UHGV virus genome: UHGV-0171044
Length of the DNA: 36,457 bases
DNA from: a virus
Direction: 5' to 3' (one strand)
Shown here: piece by piece, positions 5,942 through 36,457 of the stretch
Layout of the letters: each line of letters begins with the position of its first letter
Position numbering within the stretch: the stretch's first letter is position 1
Program-made: the position numbers and the translations under genes
Notes under the pieces: model-generated
The model's input: the letters and a program-made list of their open reading frames with translations, nothing else
The model's database searches: none
What the model was told of the DNA's origin: nothing

Positions 5942-6079
5942 TTATTTATCCCACCAAGTTCCGCATCTATCTATCCAGTTACACCAATCATCGACACTCC
6001 ATTTTGTTGTGTCGCATTTTGGCAACTGGCATGAATATCTACCTTCTTTGTAAAGTCGGCGTTTGACTTTCTTGAGCAT
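5942..6079 (-). CDS. hypothetical Cys4 small protein (45 aa, possible zinc ribbon)
   Basis: hand translation MLKKVKRRLYKEGRYSCQLPKCDTTKWSVDDWCNWIDRCGTWWDK; C-x4-C ... C-x5-C spacing; GAGGTGA RBS; first ORF after N. Confidence 0.35.
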   Translation of the reverse strand: MLKKVKRRLYKEGRYSCQLPKCDTTKWSVDDWCNWIDRCGTWWDK

Positions 6080-6087
6080 GGCTCACC

Positions 6088-6420
6088 TCAATCGTAATAA
6101 GCTGGAATTGATTTTCCGCGTTGCTTCTGGCGGCCTGAGCAAGTCACACCCATTTCACTGCGTGGCTTGCTGTACCATGTGCGCTGATTCTTGCGCTCAA
6201 TACGTTGCAGGTTGCTTTCAATCTGTTCGTGGTATTCAGCCAGCACCGTAAGGTCTATCGGATTCAGTGCGCTTTCTACTCGTGATTTCGGTTTGCGATT
6301 CAGTGAGAGAATAGGGCGGTTAACTGGTTTAGCGCTTACCCCAACCAACAGGGGATTTGCTGCTTTCCATTGAGCCTGTTTCTCTGCGCGACGTTCGCGG
6401 CGGCGTGTTTGTGCATCCAT
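6088..6420 (-). CDS. N: antitermination protein N (lambda type)
   Basis: MDAQTRRRERRAEKQAQWKAANPLLVGVSAKPVNRPILSLNRKPKSRVESALNPIDLTVLAEY matches lambda N including the arginine-rich boxB-binding motif; real start is the internal ATG at 6420. Confidence 0.9.
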   Translation of the reverse strand: MDAQTRRRERRAEKQAQWKAANPLLVGVSAKPVNRPILSLNRKPKSRVESALNPIDLTVLAEYHEQIESNLQRIERKNQRTWYSKPRSEMGVTCSGRQKQRGKSIPAYYD

Positions 6421-6578
6421 CTGGATTCTCCTGTCAGTTAGCTTTGGTGGTGTGTGGGAGTCGTAGTCCTGAACGAAAACACCCCGCGATTGGCGCATTG
6501 GCAGCTAATCCGGATTCGCACTTCCGGCCAATGCTTCGTTTCGTATCACACACCCCAAAGCCTTCTGCTTTGAATGCT

Positions 6579-6609
6579 GCCCTTCTTCAGGGCTTAATTT
6601 TTAAGAGCG
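6579..6609 (-). promoter_or_regulatory. nutL (boxA CGCTCTTAA, boxB GCCCTGAAGAAGGGC)
   Basis: minus-strand sequence CGCTCTTAAAAATTAAGCCCTGAAGAAGGGC matches lambda nutL as recalled, upstream of N. Confidence 0.85.
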
Positions 6610-6644
6610 TCACCTTCATGGTGGTCAGTGCGTCCTGCTGATGG

Positions 6645-6721
6645 CTTAAAATTACAAGAAAGATTGTATGCTGTAAACAAGAAATATTGTAAAAATGGGC
6701 GTGAAAAACAAACTCCATTGT
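6645..6721 (-). promoter_or_regulatory. pL promoter with 434-type OL operators
   Basis: three 14-bp ACAAnnnnnnTTGT sites (6654-6667, 6677-6690, 6708-6721); minus-strand TTTACA and TAATTT hexamers 17 bp apart. Confidence 0.7.
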
Positions 6722-6771
6722 TTTTAAACGGAAAATAGTTTGTTTTTTGGTTGTCGAAATCGAGGTGAGGA

Positions 6772-8115
<1,344 letters not shown>

Positions 8116-31857: not shown

Positions 31858-32181
31858 TTAATCATCCATGGATGGATTGAGCTTATCTCGTGTTGATGTG
31901 GCGATTTGTCCTACATTCCTAAGCCAAGATTTCAAATCCTTGATATTGTCATTGATTTCATGAATATCTTCTTTTTTTAGTCTGTTAATACTATTCTCAA
32001 TAATTTCAATGGATTGCTCAATATCAGATATAGTGAATGATAGTTTGTTCTTCTCATCTTTTATTGAGTTTTTAAGTGCTTCGTTCTCAGTCTTGAGGTC
32101 AGATATCTTTTGTTTTAAAGATGCCAGTTGGTACTGAACCACAATGAGTGCGATAGCTATCACGATAACTGTTGTATACAC
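31858..32181 (-). CDS. membrane-anchored coiled-coil protein of unknown function
   Basis: GTG start with GGAGG at 5 nt; N-terminal transmembrane helix then a Lys/Glu-rich coiled coil; AT-rich gene convergent with gp16, at the position of P22 sieA. Confidence 0.55.
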   Translation of the reverse strand: MYTTVIVIAIALIVVQYQLASLKQKISDLKTENEALKNSIKDEKNKLSFTISDIEQSIEIIENSINRLKKEDIHEINDNIKDLKSWLRNVGQIATSTRDKLNPSMDD

Positions 32182-32299
32182 ACCAACCTCCTTAGTTTTG
32201 AGCAGGATACCATGAAAAAAGTAAACATCTTTTGCCTACTTCACATTTGAATGGTTTGTCATTAGGATGTTTCCGGTTTTTTCAAATATGGAAATTGAT

Positions 32300-32719
32300 A
32301 TGAAGAGGATTATCGGCGTTGTTGCTGGCGCTATATTGTTATCTGGGTGCGCAACTATTGTTGGTGACGAAACACAGCTCGTGCAAGTGAACAGCAATCC
32401 TTCCGGTGCGAGCTTTAAAGTAAAAGACGAATCAGGCGTGATTGTTGCGCAAGGCAAGACCCCGCAAGGAGTAACTCTTGCCAAGTCAGATGGTAGTTAT
32501 TTTGGCAAAAAGAGCTACCAGATCACTATGGAAAAGGATGGGTACGAACCAGTTACCCTGCCAATCAAAGCCAATGCTAATGGTTGGTATATTGGTGGAA
32601 ACCTTGTGTTTGGTGGGTTAATTGGTTGGCTTGCTGTAGATCCTTTTAATGGTGGGATGTATACCTTGAAGCCAAAAGAGGCAAACGCATCTCTTATACC
32701 ATCAACAAAGCAAGACTAA
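32300..32719 (+). CDS. lipoprotein with PEGA-like beta domain and Gly-rich C-terminal motif
   Basis: signal peptide with lipobox LLSGC; VQVNSNPSGASFKV ... GKTPQGV ... KDGYEPV resembles a PEGA domain; own upstream AT-rich region and downstream terminator. Confidence 0.65.
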   Translation: MKRIIGVVAGAILLSGCATIVGDETQLVQVNSNPSGASFKVKDESGVIVAQGKTPQGVTLAKSDGSYFGKKSYQITMEKDGYEPVTLPIKANANGWYIGGNLVFGGLIGWLAVDPFNGGMYTLKPKEANASLIPSTKQD

Positions 32720-32727
32720 TAAATAGG

Positions 32728-32750
32728 ACCCACCTTCAGGTGGGTTTTTT
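32728..32750 (+). terminator. rho-independent terminator after the lipoprotein gene
   Basis: ACCCACC-TTCA-GGTGGGT followed by TTTTTT; the mnt stop codon lies in the loop region. Confidence 0.7.
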
Positions 32751-32987
32751 GTACAAATACTTCAGCGTATCAAACACCATCTTCTTAACAAGCTCTGACT
32801 GCTCATCAGCGAGTCGTTCTGCATCGTCGCGATATCCAGTCACAGGCGATGGTTTTGATAGAGCATCTTGGACGATTTGTAACAACTCGGAGTTCATTGA
32901 TCTCCCATTCGCCTCCGCCCTGAATTTTAATTTCTCCCTTACTTCCATAGGCATACGGAAGTTAAAGTGCGGATCATCTCTAGCCAT
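32736..32987 (-). CDS. mnt: Mnt repressor (ribbon-helix-helix, immI)
   Basis: MARDDPHFNFRMPMEVREKLKFRAEANGRSMNSELLQIV is an RHH fold as in P22 Mnt; divergent from arc. Confidence 0.85.
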   Translation of the reverse strand: MARDDPHFNFRMPMEVREKLKFRAEANGRSMNSELLQIVQDALSKPSPVTGYRDDAERLADEQSELVKKMVFDTLKYLYKKPT

Positions 32988-33062: not shown

Positions 33063-33077
33063 TATTGTGAGGTGAAT

Positions 33078-33239
33078 ATGAAAGGAATGAGCAAGATGCC
33101 GCAGTTCAATTTGCGGTGGCCTAAAGAAGTATTGGATTTGGTACGCAAGGTGGCGGAAGAGAATGGTCGGTCTGTTAACTCTGAGATTTATCAGAGAGTA
33201 ATGGAAAGCTTTAAGAAGGAAGGGCGCATTGGCGCGTAA
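33078..33239 (+). CDS. arc: Arc repressor
   Basis: [53 protein letters not shown] is essentially P22 Arc; GAGGTGA RBS; the track ORF is over-extended. Confidence 0.9.
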
Positions 33240-33307: not shown

Positions 33308-34180
33308 ATGAAAAGTATAGCAAAGGCACAAAACGATTTCACCATCTTCAAATTCGGCGACAGTGAAATCCGCGTCATCAACAAATGCGGTGAGCCGTGG
33401 TTTGTAGCAAAAGATGTTTGTGATGCTTTAACCCTGACTAACTCACGCAAGGCGCTTACTGCACTTGATGACGATGAAAAGGGAGTAACTTTAAGTTACA
33501 CCCTTGGTGGTGAGCAGAATCTAAGCATTGTTAGCGAATCAGGTATGTATACATTGGTTCTGCGCTGCCGCGATGCTGTCAATAAAGGTTCGGTCCCGCA
33601 CAAATTCCGCAAGTGGGTAACAGCAGAAGTTCTACCTTCAATTCGCAAACATGGCGAGTATGTGAAAGGCAAGAAAACCACTGTTGAGGAAAGAACGCCG
33701 CTACGCGATGCAGTAAACATGCTGGTAGGAAAGAAAGGACTTCGCTATGACGATGCATACAATATGGTTCATCAGCGTTTTGGTATTGACAGCATTGATG
33801 AACTTTCAATTGAACAAATCCCGCTGGCCGTAGAGTACATCCACAGGGTAGTGCTTGAAGGCGAGTTCATCGGCAAACAAGAGAAGAACGAGCTTTCTGC
33901 AAAAGAAGCAAACAGCCTTGTATGGTTATGGGATTATGCCAACCGCTCACAGGCATTATTCCGCGAACTGTATCCGGCGCTAAAACAAATTCAATCGAAC
34001 TATTCCGGCAGATGCTACGACTACGGTCATGAATTCTCGTATGTTATCGGAATGGCGAGAGACGTTTTAATCAATCACACACGAGATGTTGATATCAATG
34101 AGCCAGACGGACCAACGAATCTTTCCGCATGGATGAGACTTAAGAATAAAGAATTACCTCCTTCAGTACATAACTACTGA
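33308..34180 (+). CDS. ant: antirepressor Ant
   Basis: follows arc in immI; AGGAAA RBS before the ATG at 33308 (the track start at 33242 is GTG and would run into arc). Confidence 0.8.
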
Positions 34181-34197
34181 CAGATAACCAACGCGAC

Positions 34198-34222
34198 AAC
34201 CCAGCTTCGGCTGGGTTTTTTT
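34198..34222 (+). terminator. rho-independent terminator after ant
   Basis: AACCCAGC-TTCG-GCTGGGTT followed by TTTTTTT. Confidence 0.75.
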
Positions 34223-34280
34223 ATGCCCAAAATTCATCGTAGCCATGCTTCGGTGATTCCTTGTATCTGGAGCAAATTAA

Positions 34281-36407
34281 ATGACAGATTCAATAAATGC
34301 CAATGTTGTAGTGAGTATGCCTTCGCAACTCTTCACTATGGCTCGTTCTTTTAAAGCCGTAGCTAATGGAAAGATTTATATCGGTAAAATTGACACTGAC
34401 CCGGTAAACCCTGAAAACCAGATTCAGGTTTATGTGGAGAACGAAGATGGCTCTCACGTTCCTGTTTCACAACCAATCATCATTAACGCTGCTGGTTATC
34501 CGGTATATAACGGACAGATTGCCAAATTCGTTACCGTGCAAGGCCATTCTATGGCTGTTTATGATGCATATGGGGCGCAGCAGTTCTATTTTCCTAATGT
34601 GTTGAAGTACGACCCTGATCAACTACGGCAGCAATTAGAAGACCCGGATGGAGCTAAAAAATATCCTGAATTGCAGATATCTCGGTGGAGGGACGATTGT
34701 GATGTAAGAGGGTGGGGGGCAAAAGGCGATGGTATAACAGATGATACATCTGCATTGATCCTGGCTGCAGAATATGCACGAGAATCATCCAGAACATTAC
34801 GAGCGGAAGGTGATTTTATTATTACGGAGACATTAAATCTTCGTAATGTCAGCCTAGAAATGACCAATGCTGTTTTTACCATATCCCACTCAGGGATAGG
34901 GGTATTGCTTGGCGGGAATGCATCAAACCCTAACAACCCAAGACAAAACTTCGGAACGATTATCAGAAATTCTGGTATTTCATCTGAAACGACACCGGAT
35001 ATTCGTATTATCGGGGCAAAAGGGCAGCATATTAACATTGAGCGTTGCGACTACTTACAGTTATATGCAAACTCTGATGATTCAGTATATGAAACAGATT
35101 ATTCTATAGCCTACTCAACCTTTAACCTGAAAAAGGTCGATACAATTCATTTTCTTGGTGTAGTTAGAGGTTGGATAAACGAAAACAAGTTTTACCTAAA
35201 CAGGACAAATAATGTGATTATTGCTGATAATCCGTATTCACATAATCACAACAAGTTTTTTGGTGGAACGATGGAGAATACTGGGGTTATTGATATTCAG
35301 CGTGGTAATAATAATCATTTTTACGGACTCCGTTTTGAGCGCAGACCAGACAACCCAGATGACACACAAAGAATTAATTTTGGTAGTTATACGTGGAATA
35401 ATTCTGTTCAGGCATCATGGCTTAGCTTTTCTGCATATACCAATGAACCATATAACCCAAACAATCTTGTAACTGTCACTGATAATGGTAATGGAAATGC
35501 TGTATATCATATTCAGGAAGAACTAACTAATGAAGTGTCGCTTTTTTCAGTGAGTGAGAAAACGCCATTTTTATCAAGCGTTAATATGGGAAGTTCAGAT
35601 ACACCTGATTATGTTACAGATGTAAAAAATGTGCGAAATTTAATTCATCTTGTTAATGGTAGTTTTGCTATTGGACGTAACTTCAGGACAATTTGGGAAT
35701 CAGGTGATATAAGCGTCAGGAATGGCGATGTGTTTGCATTTACTTCTGATGTCAGCGCATTCCGCATAAGGGTTTATGGAATTGACGAGAATGGCAGTGT
35801 TATTACAAATGAGCCTGAAGGGATTGGTTTTCCAGGGGCTTCATGGGATGATGAAAACAGTCGTTTTACTACCCAGTCTAACATCGGTAATGCAAAGTTT
35901 AGGATAACCGACAAAGGAGGAGTAAAATCAATAAGGGTTGTCATTCTGTCGGGTGGTAATACATCTGGAATTACCTTCAAATATATCAGATTTACCGGAA
36001 GATATTATAAGGATAGTTCTGCGTATCCTCGAAGAAATATGGATGATCATAATATCCACAGGTCTGGTGCTGTGATGTTTAATTCATCACTTGATGTCAA
36101 AATGGAAAATATAGCATCAGGTGTTACCTGTTATGTAAAAGATGCATCTGATGTTAAGGTTAATATATTCAGAAATAGATACGTTGTTAAATCGGTGTCC
36201 GGAAATACTATATATGTGCGTAACCAGGATGAAATTTCATATTCTGGTCCTTATGATGACTTTAAAGTTGCATATACTAGCGGGGCAAAAAATATGATTT
36301 CTGATGTTTCAGGAATTTCATCTAATGCAATAACGTTATCAGGTAGTGTTCCTTCTGAAATATCAGAAGGAAGCAATATTGATTTGATTAAAATATTAAC
36401 GAAGTAG
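34281..36407 (+). CDS. tailspike: P22-type head-binding N-domain plus divergent beta-helix receptor-binding domain
   Basis: first ~115 aa ([38 protein letters not shown] ... NVLKYDPDQ) match the P22 gp9 head-binding domain; the remainder carries a [11 protein letters not shown] motif typical of pectate-lyase-like beta-helix enzymes and does not match P22 endorhamnosidase. Confidence 0.9.
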
Positions 36408-36457
36408 GATTAAATGCATGGAATATAGAACCGGACATTTTATTGCAATTGATATAA

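Follow-up and report, generated by a model that had tools for sequence, protein, structure and literature searches.

The tailspike gene and its surroundings

The window, ie the whole stretch of viral DNA that was analysed (UHGV-0171044, 36,457 nt), contains a single tailspike reading frame of 708 amino acids. This gene, its signals and the domains of its product are as follows.

34198-34226, plus strand: intrinsic terminator after ant, 5' of the tailspike gene (8-bp GC-rich stem, 4-nt loop, T run)
34269-34272, plus strand: ribosome-binding site GGAG, 8 nt 5' of the ATG, read directly from the sequence
34281-36407, plus strand: tailspike coding sequence, 708 aa, from the ORF list
34290-34622, plus strand: head-binding (virion-attachment) domain, residues 4-114, from Pfam PF09008 and PDB matches
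34623-34712, plus strand: neck/linker, residues 115-144, 92% identical in the CUS-3 endosialidase tailspike and common to 9vvr_A; low pLDDT in the monomer model
34695-35519, plus strand: right-handed parallel beta-helix, residues ~139-413, predicted catalytic domain (AF2 model)
34713-34757, plus strand: conserved cap motif, residues 145-159, the module-exchange junction, from the limits of similarity with CUS-3 and N1131
35181-35339, plus strand: three consecutive rungs with the candidate active site (E301, E332, R351, E353; Y319, H321), from conservation in homologues
35526-36014, plus strand: C-terminal beta-sandwich domain 1, residues ~416-578 (AF2 secondary structure)
36069-36401, plus strand: C-terminal beta-sandwich domain 2, residues ~597-707 (AF2 secondary structure, pLDDT 84-96)
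36447-36457, plus strand: first 11 nt only of a small 3-TM ORF (phrog_1443), at which the window ends, from comparison of the window end with L001, a PHROG match (E 2e-54) and translations

None of the features of the tailspike gene is due to chance. The identical protein is encoded on five public contigs, in a prophage at argW, and the tailspike copies of E. coli 20AR0300 are 98.6-99.9% identical to it. Mnt, Arc and a Bro-N/P22_AR_C protein are encoded upstream, giving the order mnt-arc-ant-tailspike of the P22 immI region; the layout of the terminator is also that of the P22 immI-gene 9 region. Further upstream lie ejection proteins of the P22 gp7/gp20/gp16 type, and the tailspike gene closes the virion gene block. 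Sf6 is 97.6% identical to the window over 61% of the first 25 kb. The gene product is the tailspike of an Sf6/P22-like temperate podophage, an E. coli prophage integrated at argW. The phrog_1443 ORF always lies directly after this receptor module, and is present in L001, L002, L004, L006, L019 and L023. The receptor part is AT-rich and rich in Asn and Ser, as had been noticed when the sequence was first read: GC content is 0.465 in the window as a whole but 0.39 over residues 116-413 and 0.36 over residues 414-708, with 11.7% Asn in the helix part and 13.6% Ser in the C-terminal part.

Attachment domain and exchange junction

The sole Pfam match of the tailspike is PF09008 (Head_binding), at residues 4-114 with an E-value of 2.7e-65. 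Sequence matches in the PDB, to Sf6 gp14 (7sg7, E 1.6e-63) and to P22 gp9 constructs (E ~1e-49), end at residues 115-119. The head-binding domain of P22 gp9 type, which the sequence-only reading had placed at the N-terminus, is therefore present and, from the homology with P22 and Sf6, residues 1-114 would dock the trimer onto the tail. The same reading held that the rest of the protein is not the P22 endorhamnosidase, and no match was found to the receptor domain of P22, Sf6, HK620 or CUS-3. The endosialidase beta-propeller, beta-barrel and C-terminal S74 chaperone domains were absent from the tailspike in the Pfam search.

The endosialidase tailspike of CUS-3 has 92% identity as far as residue 159, after which the two proteins are unrelated. 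Conversely, protein P0001 of strain N1131 has a 99% identical receptor module from about residue 145, behind a different N-terminus of 190 aa, and is carried by an unrelated, non-P22-like type of prophage. At the DNA level, matches to the gene either stop at nt 473 or start at nt 436, and similarity to P22/Sf6/HK620-type phages ends at nt 338-473. Because there are two independent junction partners, CUS-3 and the N1131 prophage, the exchange point can be assigned to the cap motif, and these alignments demonstrate that the receptor module is exchanged by recombination at the conserved 15 residues, 145-159. The swapped domain suspected earlier is thus substantiated, with its recombination junction narrowed to a 15-residue motif. 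A third sharp junction, at nt 1239, was considered and rejected; the MS14385-type allele is homologous throughout, its identity decaying gradually toward the C-terminus. Homologous modules occur fused to PF09008, PF18668, PF12571 and PF03906 N-termini. Mosaic tailspikes are textbook for P22-like phages, and the architecture itself is ordinary.

The sequence GAKGDG.TDDT, at residues 146-156 at the start of the receptor part, had been described as typical of pectate-lyase-like beta-helix depolymerases. When the family profile was run against the PDB, this N-terminal cap motif was matched in many solved beta-helix enzymes. By itself the motif is not diagnostic of a beta-helix, because the CUS-3 endosialidase tailspike has it too; it marks the exchange junction.

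Fold, candidate active site and relatives of the receptor module

The AlphaFold (AF2) model of the monomer, with a pLDDT of 86, has a right-handed beta-helix and, after it, two beta-sandwich domains, in agreement with the pectate-lyase-like beta-helix proposed for this part of the protein. Residues ~139-708, comprising these three domains, form the receptor section and belong to a large family without a solved structure. No solved structure sharing the catalytic core was found by sequence (phmmer and a 29-sequence profile against the PDB), only the head-binding domain, neck and cap being matched. Entry 9vvr_A, for which no papers mentioning it were found, was rejected as a structure for the receptor domain; it has only the neck and cap in common. 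PF12708 does not match the window protein at an E-value of 0.01 or better, and with the 99%-identical module in P0001 its score is 20.9 bits (cut-off 27), at the cap only; it is present in distant homologues of the receptor module. The best viral structural match of the model is Pasteurella phage F108, and the folds that superpose best on it are uronate lyases and C5-epimerases.

In 31 homologues, with identities down to 23-29% and PHB02 Dep-ORF8 included, E301, E332, R351 and E353 are invariant, and Y319 and H321 nearly so. From this conservation we infer that the four, with Y319 and H321, are candidate catalytic residues. The six would fit either a lyase or a hydrolase mechanism. We lean slightly toward beta-elimination over hydrolysis, because the substrate proposed below would contain 4-linked glucuronic acid and because of the best-superposing folds named above.

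The PHROG family phrog_18162 matches residues 136-704 (E 3.8e-218), and the receptor family comprises 473 clusters at 50% identity with E-values of 1e-30 or better. Among cultured phages the best protein match, of 51% identity, is in the unannotated Vectrevirus PDP21P3/P6 genomes, which are recorded without a host and for which the literature search gave nothing; a close relative among cultured phages was looked for and the idea rejected, as no DNA match extends beyond nt 473. The only tested relative is Dep-ORF8 of Pasteurella phage PHB02, assigned to the tail fibre gene with a predicted mass of 109.6 kDa (PMC6090149). It is probably gp17 of that phage (968 aa, annotated as tail fibre), because 968 aa agrees with 109.6 kDa; the ORF numbering of the record does not correspond. 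PHB02 gp17 is 29% identical over the whole receptor module (583 aligned positions; tblastn E 7e-62). High identity of the C-terminal part to a characterised tailspike would have undone the view of this module as a distinct one, and the nearest such protein has this 29% only. Recombinant Dep-ORF8 removes the capsule from each of 31 Pasteurella multocida strains of serogroup A, and capsule-deletion mutants are not stripped (PMC6090149).

Lysogens carrying the module and the predicted substrate

Of 5426 complete genomes of E. coli, no more than 17 have the module, at 22 places, and the carriers are lysogens. A KfoC-type chondroitin-polymerase homologue lies at the centre of the group 2 capsule locus in 16 of the 17. 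Capsule region 2 is of type A in four carriers, type B in nine and K4-type in two, with a more distant KfoC-type locus in S87; the remaining strain, W46, has a related allele but a K2-like region 2. Strains 20AR0300, N1131 and ECONIH1 are of type A, AST240 and JNE070796 of type B, and 23CRST013 and U1-41 are K4 strains. Just 65 of the 5426 genomes have a locus of type A, B or K4, and the hypergeometric probability of 15 or more such carriers among 17 is 3.6e-28, counting carriers singly and ignoring kinship, although several may be closely related. The window's own allele is present in only two genomes (five copies). The other 15 carriers have an allele whose identity to it is 71% overall but drops to ~45-50% in the C-terminal domains; compared with the MS14385-type allele, beta-sandwich domain 1 is the most divergent part (~45-50% identity). 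The module occurs on two unrelated prophage types, and 20AR0300 has three P22-like prophages, each with this spike.

The polymerase encoded in type A loci has about 80% identity to that of K4, a chondroitin polymerase (PDB 2z86). The K4 gene sizes in Gladstone et al. 2026 show that types A and B are distinct from K4, and the gene content suggests that their capsule chemistry would be related to that of K4.

Since the module is found almost only in strains with a K4-related capsule, its most likely substrate is that capsule rather than O antigen. Between the O-antigen and capsule specificities that had both been left open by the sequence-only reading, the distribution of lysogens thus points to capsule, of the K4-related, KfoC-type group 2. 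We consider it probable that the module is a depolymerase for K4-related (chondroitin-like) capsules of E. coli. It would bind the capsule and cleave it endolytically; the substrate would be a glycosaminoglycan-like polymer of GlcA and HexNAc made by the KfoC-type polymerase, and its cleavage would let the phage tunnel to the outer membrane.

All classical P22-like tailspikes except that of CUS-3 cut O antigen, the phage backbone here is Sf6-like, and lysogen 20AR0300 has a rhamnose-type O-antigen cluster of the O13/O129/O135 family, related to that of Shigella flexneri. An O-antigen-specific endoglycosidase like P22 gp9, Sf6 gp14 or HK620 gp9, with the link to capsule loci a by-product of lineage, is nevertheless unlikely. 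The O-antigen clusters of at least three carriers differ: that of N1131, which has the 99%-identical module, is of type O86 and its wzy is disrupted, JNE070796 is O166 from its record name, and other carriers are O166:H15. What 16 of the 17 do have in common, across the two prophage types, is the KfoC-type K locus, and PDB searches gave no sequence similarity to the receptor domain of any O-antigen tailspike. A narrower idea, a new enzyme for the rhamnose backbone, was suggested by the Sf6-like phage backbone together with the S. flexneri-type cluster of 20AR0300, and was dropped because N1131 is O86.

A second explanation, to which we give a similarly low probability, is that the K locus has hitch-hiked in clones and that the true receptor is another. 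Several carriers agree in their pheV island and have identical proteins in kps region 1 (N1131, W46), a number of strain series appear clonal (100117/100248, the AST strains and the JNE strains), and W46 is a counter-example to the KfoC-type association. Against this, the carriers span at least three O types, four KfoC-type variants of region 2 (A, B, K4 and S87-type) and two unrelated prophage backbones, come from human, dog and prawn in at least six countries, and give P ~1e-9 even when no more than 5 of 6 independent events are counted.

It is a little less probable still that the spike only binds its receptor, the beta-helix being an adhesin as in PfbA and the polymer not degraded. The search for a catalytic motif shared with a solved enzyme gave none, but the invariant cluster of acidic and basic residues lies on adjacent rungs and is conserved down to the most distant homologues, and Dep-ORF8 gives translucent spots at nanogram doses, while PHB02 makes plaques with halos (PMC6090149). 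Finally, it is very improbable that the module depolymerises not a K antigen but another exopolysaccharide of wide availability, for example colanic acid: a PHROG named 'tail spike protein with colanic acid degradation activity' does match residues 2-332, but through the head-binding domain and cap, which are shared (positions 1-255 of 632 in the profile), and as the ability to make colanic acid is almost universal in E. coli no tie to a rare K locus would be expected, whereas the module is confined to the 17 genomes, 16 with KfoC-type loci.

A K4-related capsule remains the preferred substrate. Nothing on a depolymerase for K4 or chondroitin capsules was found in the literature searched. It is possible, and we propose it tentatively, at somewhat less than even chances, that this enzyme is the first from a phage with specificity for chondroitin-type (K4-family) capsules of E. 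coli and that, with the depolymerase of the Pasteurella hyaluronan capsule, it defines a large beta-helix family, without a solved structure, that cuts unsulfated GlcA-beta1,3-HexNAc backbones with an active site (E301/E332/R351/E353) unseen in any solved lyase or hydrolase. For a module that is uncharacterised, this specificity is a concrete prediction that can be tested cheaply. K4-related capsules are found in lineages of clinical importance and, if the prediction is true, an enzyme cutting unsulfated chondroitin-like polymers could serve in capsule typing, in anti-capsule therapy and in making defined chondroitin oligosaccharides from K4-type fermentation products.

Comparison with known systems

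The beta-helix uronate lyases and C5-epimerases RbmB (9ozd), AlgE4 (2pyg) and the PL6 enzyme chondroitinase B (1dbg) act at C5 of uronic acids. Their sequence similarity to the window protein is limited to the N-terminal cap, and they are without the head-binding and C-terminal sandwich domains. The K5 lyase KflA/ElmA of coliphage K5A (PDB 2x3h) has no detectable sequence similarity to it and acts on a different capsule and linkage. The heparosan-specific Pasteurella phage PHB01 was absent from the tblastn matches of the receptor module.

Dep-ORF8 (gp17) of PHB02 and the related spikes of Pmp1, Pa7, ZA29 and F108 are homologous over the whole receptor module, and Dep-ORF8 has all 15 invariant residues in common with the window protein. 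The serogroup A capsule (hyaluronan) has the GlcA-beta1,3-HexNAc-beta1,4 backbone of chondroitin, save for the C4 epimer. Dep-ORF8 is a capsule-dependent depolymerase by experiment, whereas depolymerase activity is proposed here from the association with K loci. PHB02 is also a lytic phage of the Autographiviridae, of another host genus, whose spike has a T7-type N-terminal adaptor (PF03906), and 71% of positions differ.

The tailspikes of the lederbergviruses Sf6 (gp14), P22 (gp9) and HK620 (gp9) have the same PF09008 head-binding domain, the same gene position after mnt-arc-ant and the same plan of head-binding domain, beta-helix and C-terminal domain. Beyond about residue 119 sequence similarity is absent. 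The three are endoglycosidases of O antigen (endorhamnosidase, endo-N-acetylglucosaminidase), whereas here the evidence points to a capsule substrate.

The K1-capsule-specific P22-like prophage CUS-3 shares the protein through the junction motif, GA.GDG..DDTSAL, and continues after it with a beta-propeller endosialidase and C-terminal chaperone (981 aa in all) where the window protein has the beta-helix and two beta-sandwich domains. Both have an accessory gene directly downstream of the spike, neuO in CUS-3 and the phrog_1443 ORF here. CUS-3 is the precedent for a P22-like prophage with a group 2 capsule as receptor and, if our prediction is true, the present tailspike would be the second example, after CUS-3 and K1.

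Gene organisation and domain limits

The tailspike is encoded by a single ORF whose ATG is, on reading the sequence, preceded by GGAG at 8 nt. By analogy with P22, its expression presumably requires late-operon antitermination read-through. The gene order matches the immI-to-gene 9 layout of P22, with P22 gp7/gp20/gp16-type ejection proteins preceding the Mnt/Arc/antirepressor block, and Shigella phage Sf6 aligns with 61% of the window's first 25 kb, at 97.6% identity.

Features of the tailspike region
31858-32181, minus strand, small ORF
32267-32719, plus strand, small ORF
32736-32987, minus strand, Mnt
33075-33239, Arc
33308-34180, Bro-N/P22_AR_C antirepressor
34198-34217 (element to 34226), strong intrinsic terminator closing the preceding gene, ant (from sequence)
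34281-36407, plus strand, tailspike, 708 codons
34713-34757, plus strand, cap motif, 15 residues (145-159), from the CUS-3 and N1131 junctions
36447-36457, phrog_1443 ORF, cut by the window end

The two small ORFs occupy the spot, between the gp16-type ejection gene and mnt, that is held by sieA in P22. The first, which is AT-rich (GC ~0.33), has a 107-aa coiled-coil product; that of the second is lipoprotein-like, of 139-150 aa (signal ...LLSGC). Neither gave a Pfam match reaching threshold. A gut-metagenome scaffold of 93.7 kb encodes an identical tailspike protein; there the prophage ends with spike, small ORF and integrase beside yfdC, mlaA and fadL, ie the argW site.

The sequence-only reading had proposed a P22-type head-binding domain followed by a receptor-binding part unlike that of P22. 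The sole Pfam match is PF09008 Head_binding (residues 4-114, E 2.7e-65), and matches to PDB sequences (Sf6 gp14, E 1.6e-63; P22 gp9 constructs, ~1e-49) stop at residues 115-119. The 11-residue motif which it had cited lies at residues 146-156, GC, at 0.465 over the window as a whole, drops along the gene to 0.39 and later 0.36, and the helix part is 11.7% Asn and the C-terminal part 13.6% Ser, so that the observation, including its AT-rich and Asn/Ser-rich composition, is confirmed in every detail. The protein has the N-domain and gene context of the P22-like tailspike class; its receptor part, tested against the endorhamnosidase, endo-GlcNAc-ase and endosialidase families, belongs to none of them.

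Module exchange at the cap motif

Mosaic tailspikes are well known. DNA matches to known phages (HK620, Sf6, CUS-3 and others) extend only over nt 1-338 up to 1-473 of the gene. Up to residue 159 (...GWGA[K/I]GDG[I/V][T/H]DDTSAL) the endosialidase tailspike of CUS-3 is 92% identical; beyond that it is unrelated. A non-P22-like prophage of E. coli N1131 encodes a 766-aa protein with a different 190-aa N-terminus, which, from about residue 145 through to the stop, is 99% identical to the window tailspike. Together these two junctions identify the cap motif as the common sequence where modules join. Among public proteins, homologues of the receptor module (43-66% identity) are fused to several other adaptors.

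Adaptors joined to the receptor module
P22 head-binding domains
TSP1/gp66-type N-domains (PF18668)
P2-type tail-collar domains (PF12571)
T7 tail-fibre N-domains (PF03906), in Pasteurella phages

The 843-aa 'tail spike protein' in PDB 9vvr_A has its neck and cap, and not its helix, in common with window residues ~114-160; it is a further partner at the same junction. A publication for this recently deposited entry was looked for and none was found.

Directly 3' of the receptor module, in every context, is the phrog_1443 ORF of 95-105 aa with three predicted membrane helices (L001 10147-10434; L002 9733-10017; L004 6174-6461; L006 44544-44861; L019 8138-8455; L023 6657-6974, L-numbers being the genome loci examined). 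It follows the module in P22-like and non-P22-like prophages alike, and module and ORF seem to move together as one cassette. In CUS-3 the corresponding position, adjoining the spike, is that of neuO, and the ORF may therefore be a lysogenic-conversion or exclusion gene.

Carriers and their capsules

Of 5426 complete E. coli genomes, exactly 17 have the receptor module, at 22 places; megablast and more sensitive blastn agree on this count. The window's own allele (98.6-99.9% identity) occurs in two, 20AR0300 and N1131. Strain 20AR0300 (NZ_CP195498.1) has three P22-like prophages (argW, bio, sbcB/dacD), each with this spike at 99-99.9% identity (L023 4523-6646; L001 7983-10106; L006 42410-44533); blastn gives a fourth, partial place. 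In N1131 it sits on a non-P22-like phage type. The O-antigen clusters are of the O13/O129/O135 family in 20AR0300 and O86 in N1131, the latter with a disrupted wzy (L009 16122-17520, annotated with a frameshift and internal stop), so that polymerised O antigen may be scarce or absent in this encapsulated lysogen.

The two strains have the same group 2 capsule region 2, several protein accessions being identical. It encodes a galE/kfoA-like protein, a 584-aa 'sulfotransferase family' protein, a 690-aa double-GT2 polymerase, a pyruvyl-transferase-family protein, a UDP-sugar dehydrogenase and a 446-aa GT2. The polymerase shares ~80% identity with KfoC, the chondroitin polymerase of E. coli K4 (PDB 2z86; 1128 bits, 621 residues). 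Comparison with the published gene sizes of K4 and its variants (PMC13171598, supplement) makes the locus K4-related, not K4 itself.

Region 2 classes and carriers of the receptor module
Type A: at least 99.5% identity to N1131 region 2; 27/5426 genomes; four carriers (20AR0300, N1131, MS14385, EC11)
Type B: 87% identity, without the pyruvyl-transferase gene; 18/5426 genomes; nine carriers (E200086, 100117, 100248, AST240, AST20, PS_131_S11, E-1246, fS10a, JNE070796 (O166:H15))
K4-type: kfoA-C at 99% identity or more; 20/5426 genomes; two carriers (23CRST013, PEC011)
S87: more distant locus with 690-aa KfoC-family polymerase (54% identity), dehydrogenase and kfoG-like GT2
W46: K2-like region 2 with a CDP-glycerol glycerophosphotransferase gene (L022 10674-16124)

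Counting types A, B and K4 only (65/5426), the probability of at least 15 of 17 is 3.6e-28, and five of six independent events would still give P ~1e-9, both values ignoring shared ancestry. The carriers are isolates from human, dog and prawn and include at least three O types, four variants of region 2 and two unrelated prophage backbones. The exception, W46, has a related tailspike allele, a pheV island in common with N1131 and identical kps region 1 proteins, which fits a capsule switch after prophage acquisition.

Type A, type B, true K4 and the S87 type form a series of group 2 K loci with KfoC-type double-GT2 polymerases (N1131, L012 8892-18138; 20AR0300, L014 2590-11861; 23CRST013, L015 13001-26447; S87, L024 34449-40993). 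The S87 locus has no annotated galE-like gene, and a named K or KL type was sought for types A and B with no match made. The closest cultured-phage module (51% identity over 96%) is at ~nt 6074-7774 of Vectrevirus PDP21P3/P6 (OZ035769, OZ035804, OZ035822), unannotated SP6/K1-5-like coliphage genomes; these are candidate lytic phages of KfoC-type encapsulated E. coli.

The 15 other carriers have an allele 71% identical overall to the window tailspike, near identical at residues 1-300 and ~45-50% identical in the C-terminal domains. That this MS14385-type allele accompanies types A, B and K4 alike suggests that their common backbone is what it recognises.

A Pasteurella relative

The serogroup A capsule of Pasteurella multocida is hyaluronan. 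Hyaluronan and chondroitin have the same GlcA-beta1,3-HexNAc-beta1,4 backbone, the sole difference being C4 of the hexosamine. By tblastn, tail fibres of P. multocida phages PHB02, Pmp1, Pa7 and ZA29 are 29-30% identical over the whole receptor module, and F108 matches in part. The capsule depolymerase Dep-ORF8 of PHB02, predicted at 109.6 kDa, was assigned to the tail fibre gene (PMC6090149). This assignment and the mass fit the 968-aa gp17, which we infer to be Dep-ORF8, the ORF numbers of the record not aligning with "orf8". According to the abstract its activity is specific to serogroup A, the paper being silent on the capsule's identity (PMC6090149). Given the common backbone, a relationship with the Pasteurella enzyme makes chemical sense.

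Fold and candidate active site

The receptor module is a member of the large Dep-ORF8/phrog_18162 family, annotated 'tail fiber protein' in PHROGs; clustered at 50% identity, the family has 473 representatives at E <=1e-30. Residues 114-708 were modelled with AlphaFold2 from a 29-sequence alignment (pLDDT 86, pTM 0.66). The model has a cap helix, then a right-handed parallel beta-helix (residues ~139-413, mostly pLDDT >90) and then two beta-sandwich domains (~416-578 and ~597-707).

Structural comparison of the model (two values each)
Geobacillus virus E2 ORF18: 21.8, 8.4
RbmB lyase: 20.6, 3.3
PfbA: 20.1, 3.2-3.4
Depo32: 19.6, 5.4
AlgE4: 18.9, 3.0
K5 lyase: 18.9, 5.3
Chondroitinase B: 14.7, 4.2

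The best match in predicted viral structures was a Pasteurella phage F108 protein (31% identity). The family profile aligned with PDB sequences, all of which were searched, in the neck and cap only, so the catalytic core is without a solved homologue. Across 31 members, the Pasteurella enzyme among them, the residues G245, A263, Y278, W298, N300, E301, N324, E332, G342, N345, R351, E353, N374, G403 and N406 are invariant; K247, R308, Y319, H321 and D401 are among those that are nearly so. The invariant Asn series looks like a structural ladder, and E301, E332, R351 and E353, on successive rungs, are a candidate active site.

The best-supported reading makes the tailspike a capsule-specific depolymerase whose substrates are glycosaminoglycan-like, K4-related capsules of group 2. 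A lyase is slightly favoured over a hydrolase, since 4-linked GlcA would be present in the substrate and C5 of uronates is where the best-superposing cores (RbmB, AlgE4-type) act. No K4-family capsule depolymerase was found in the literature searched; the assignment is a specific, testable prediction, and the putative active site has no solved structure. Its analogues would be the endosialidase of CUS-3, which acts on K1, and the K5 lyases, which act on heparosan.
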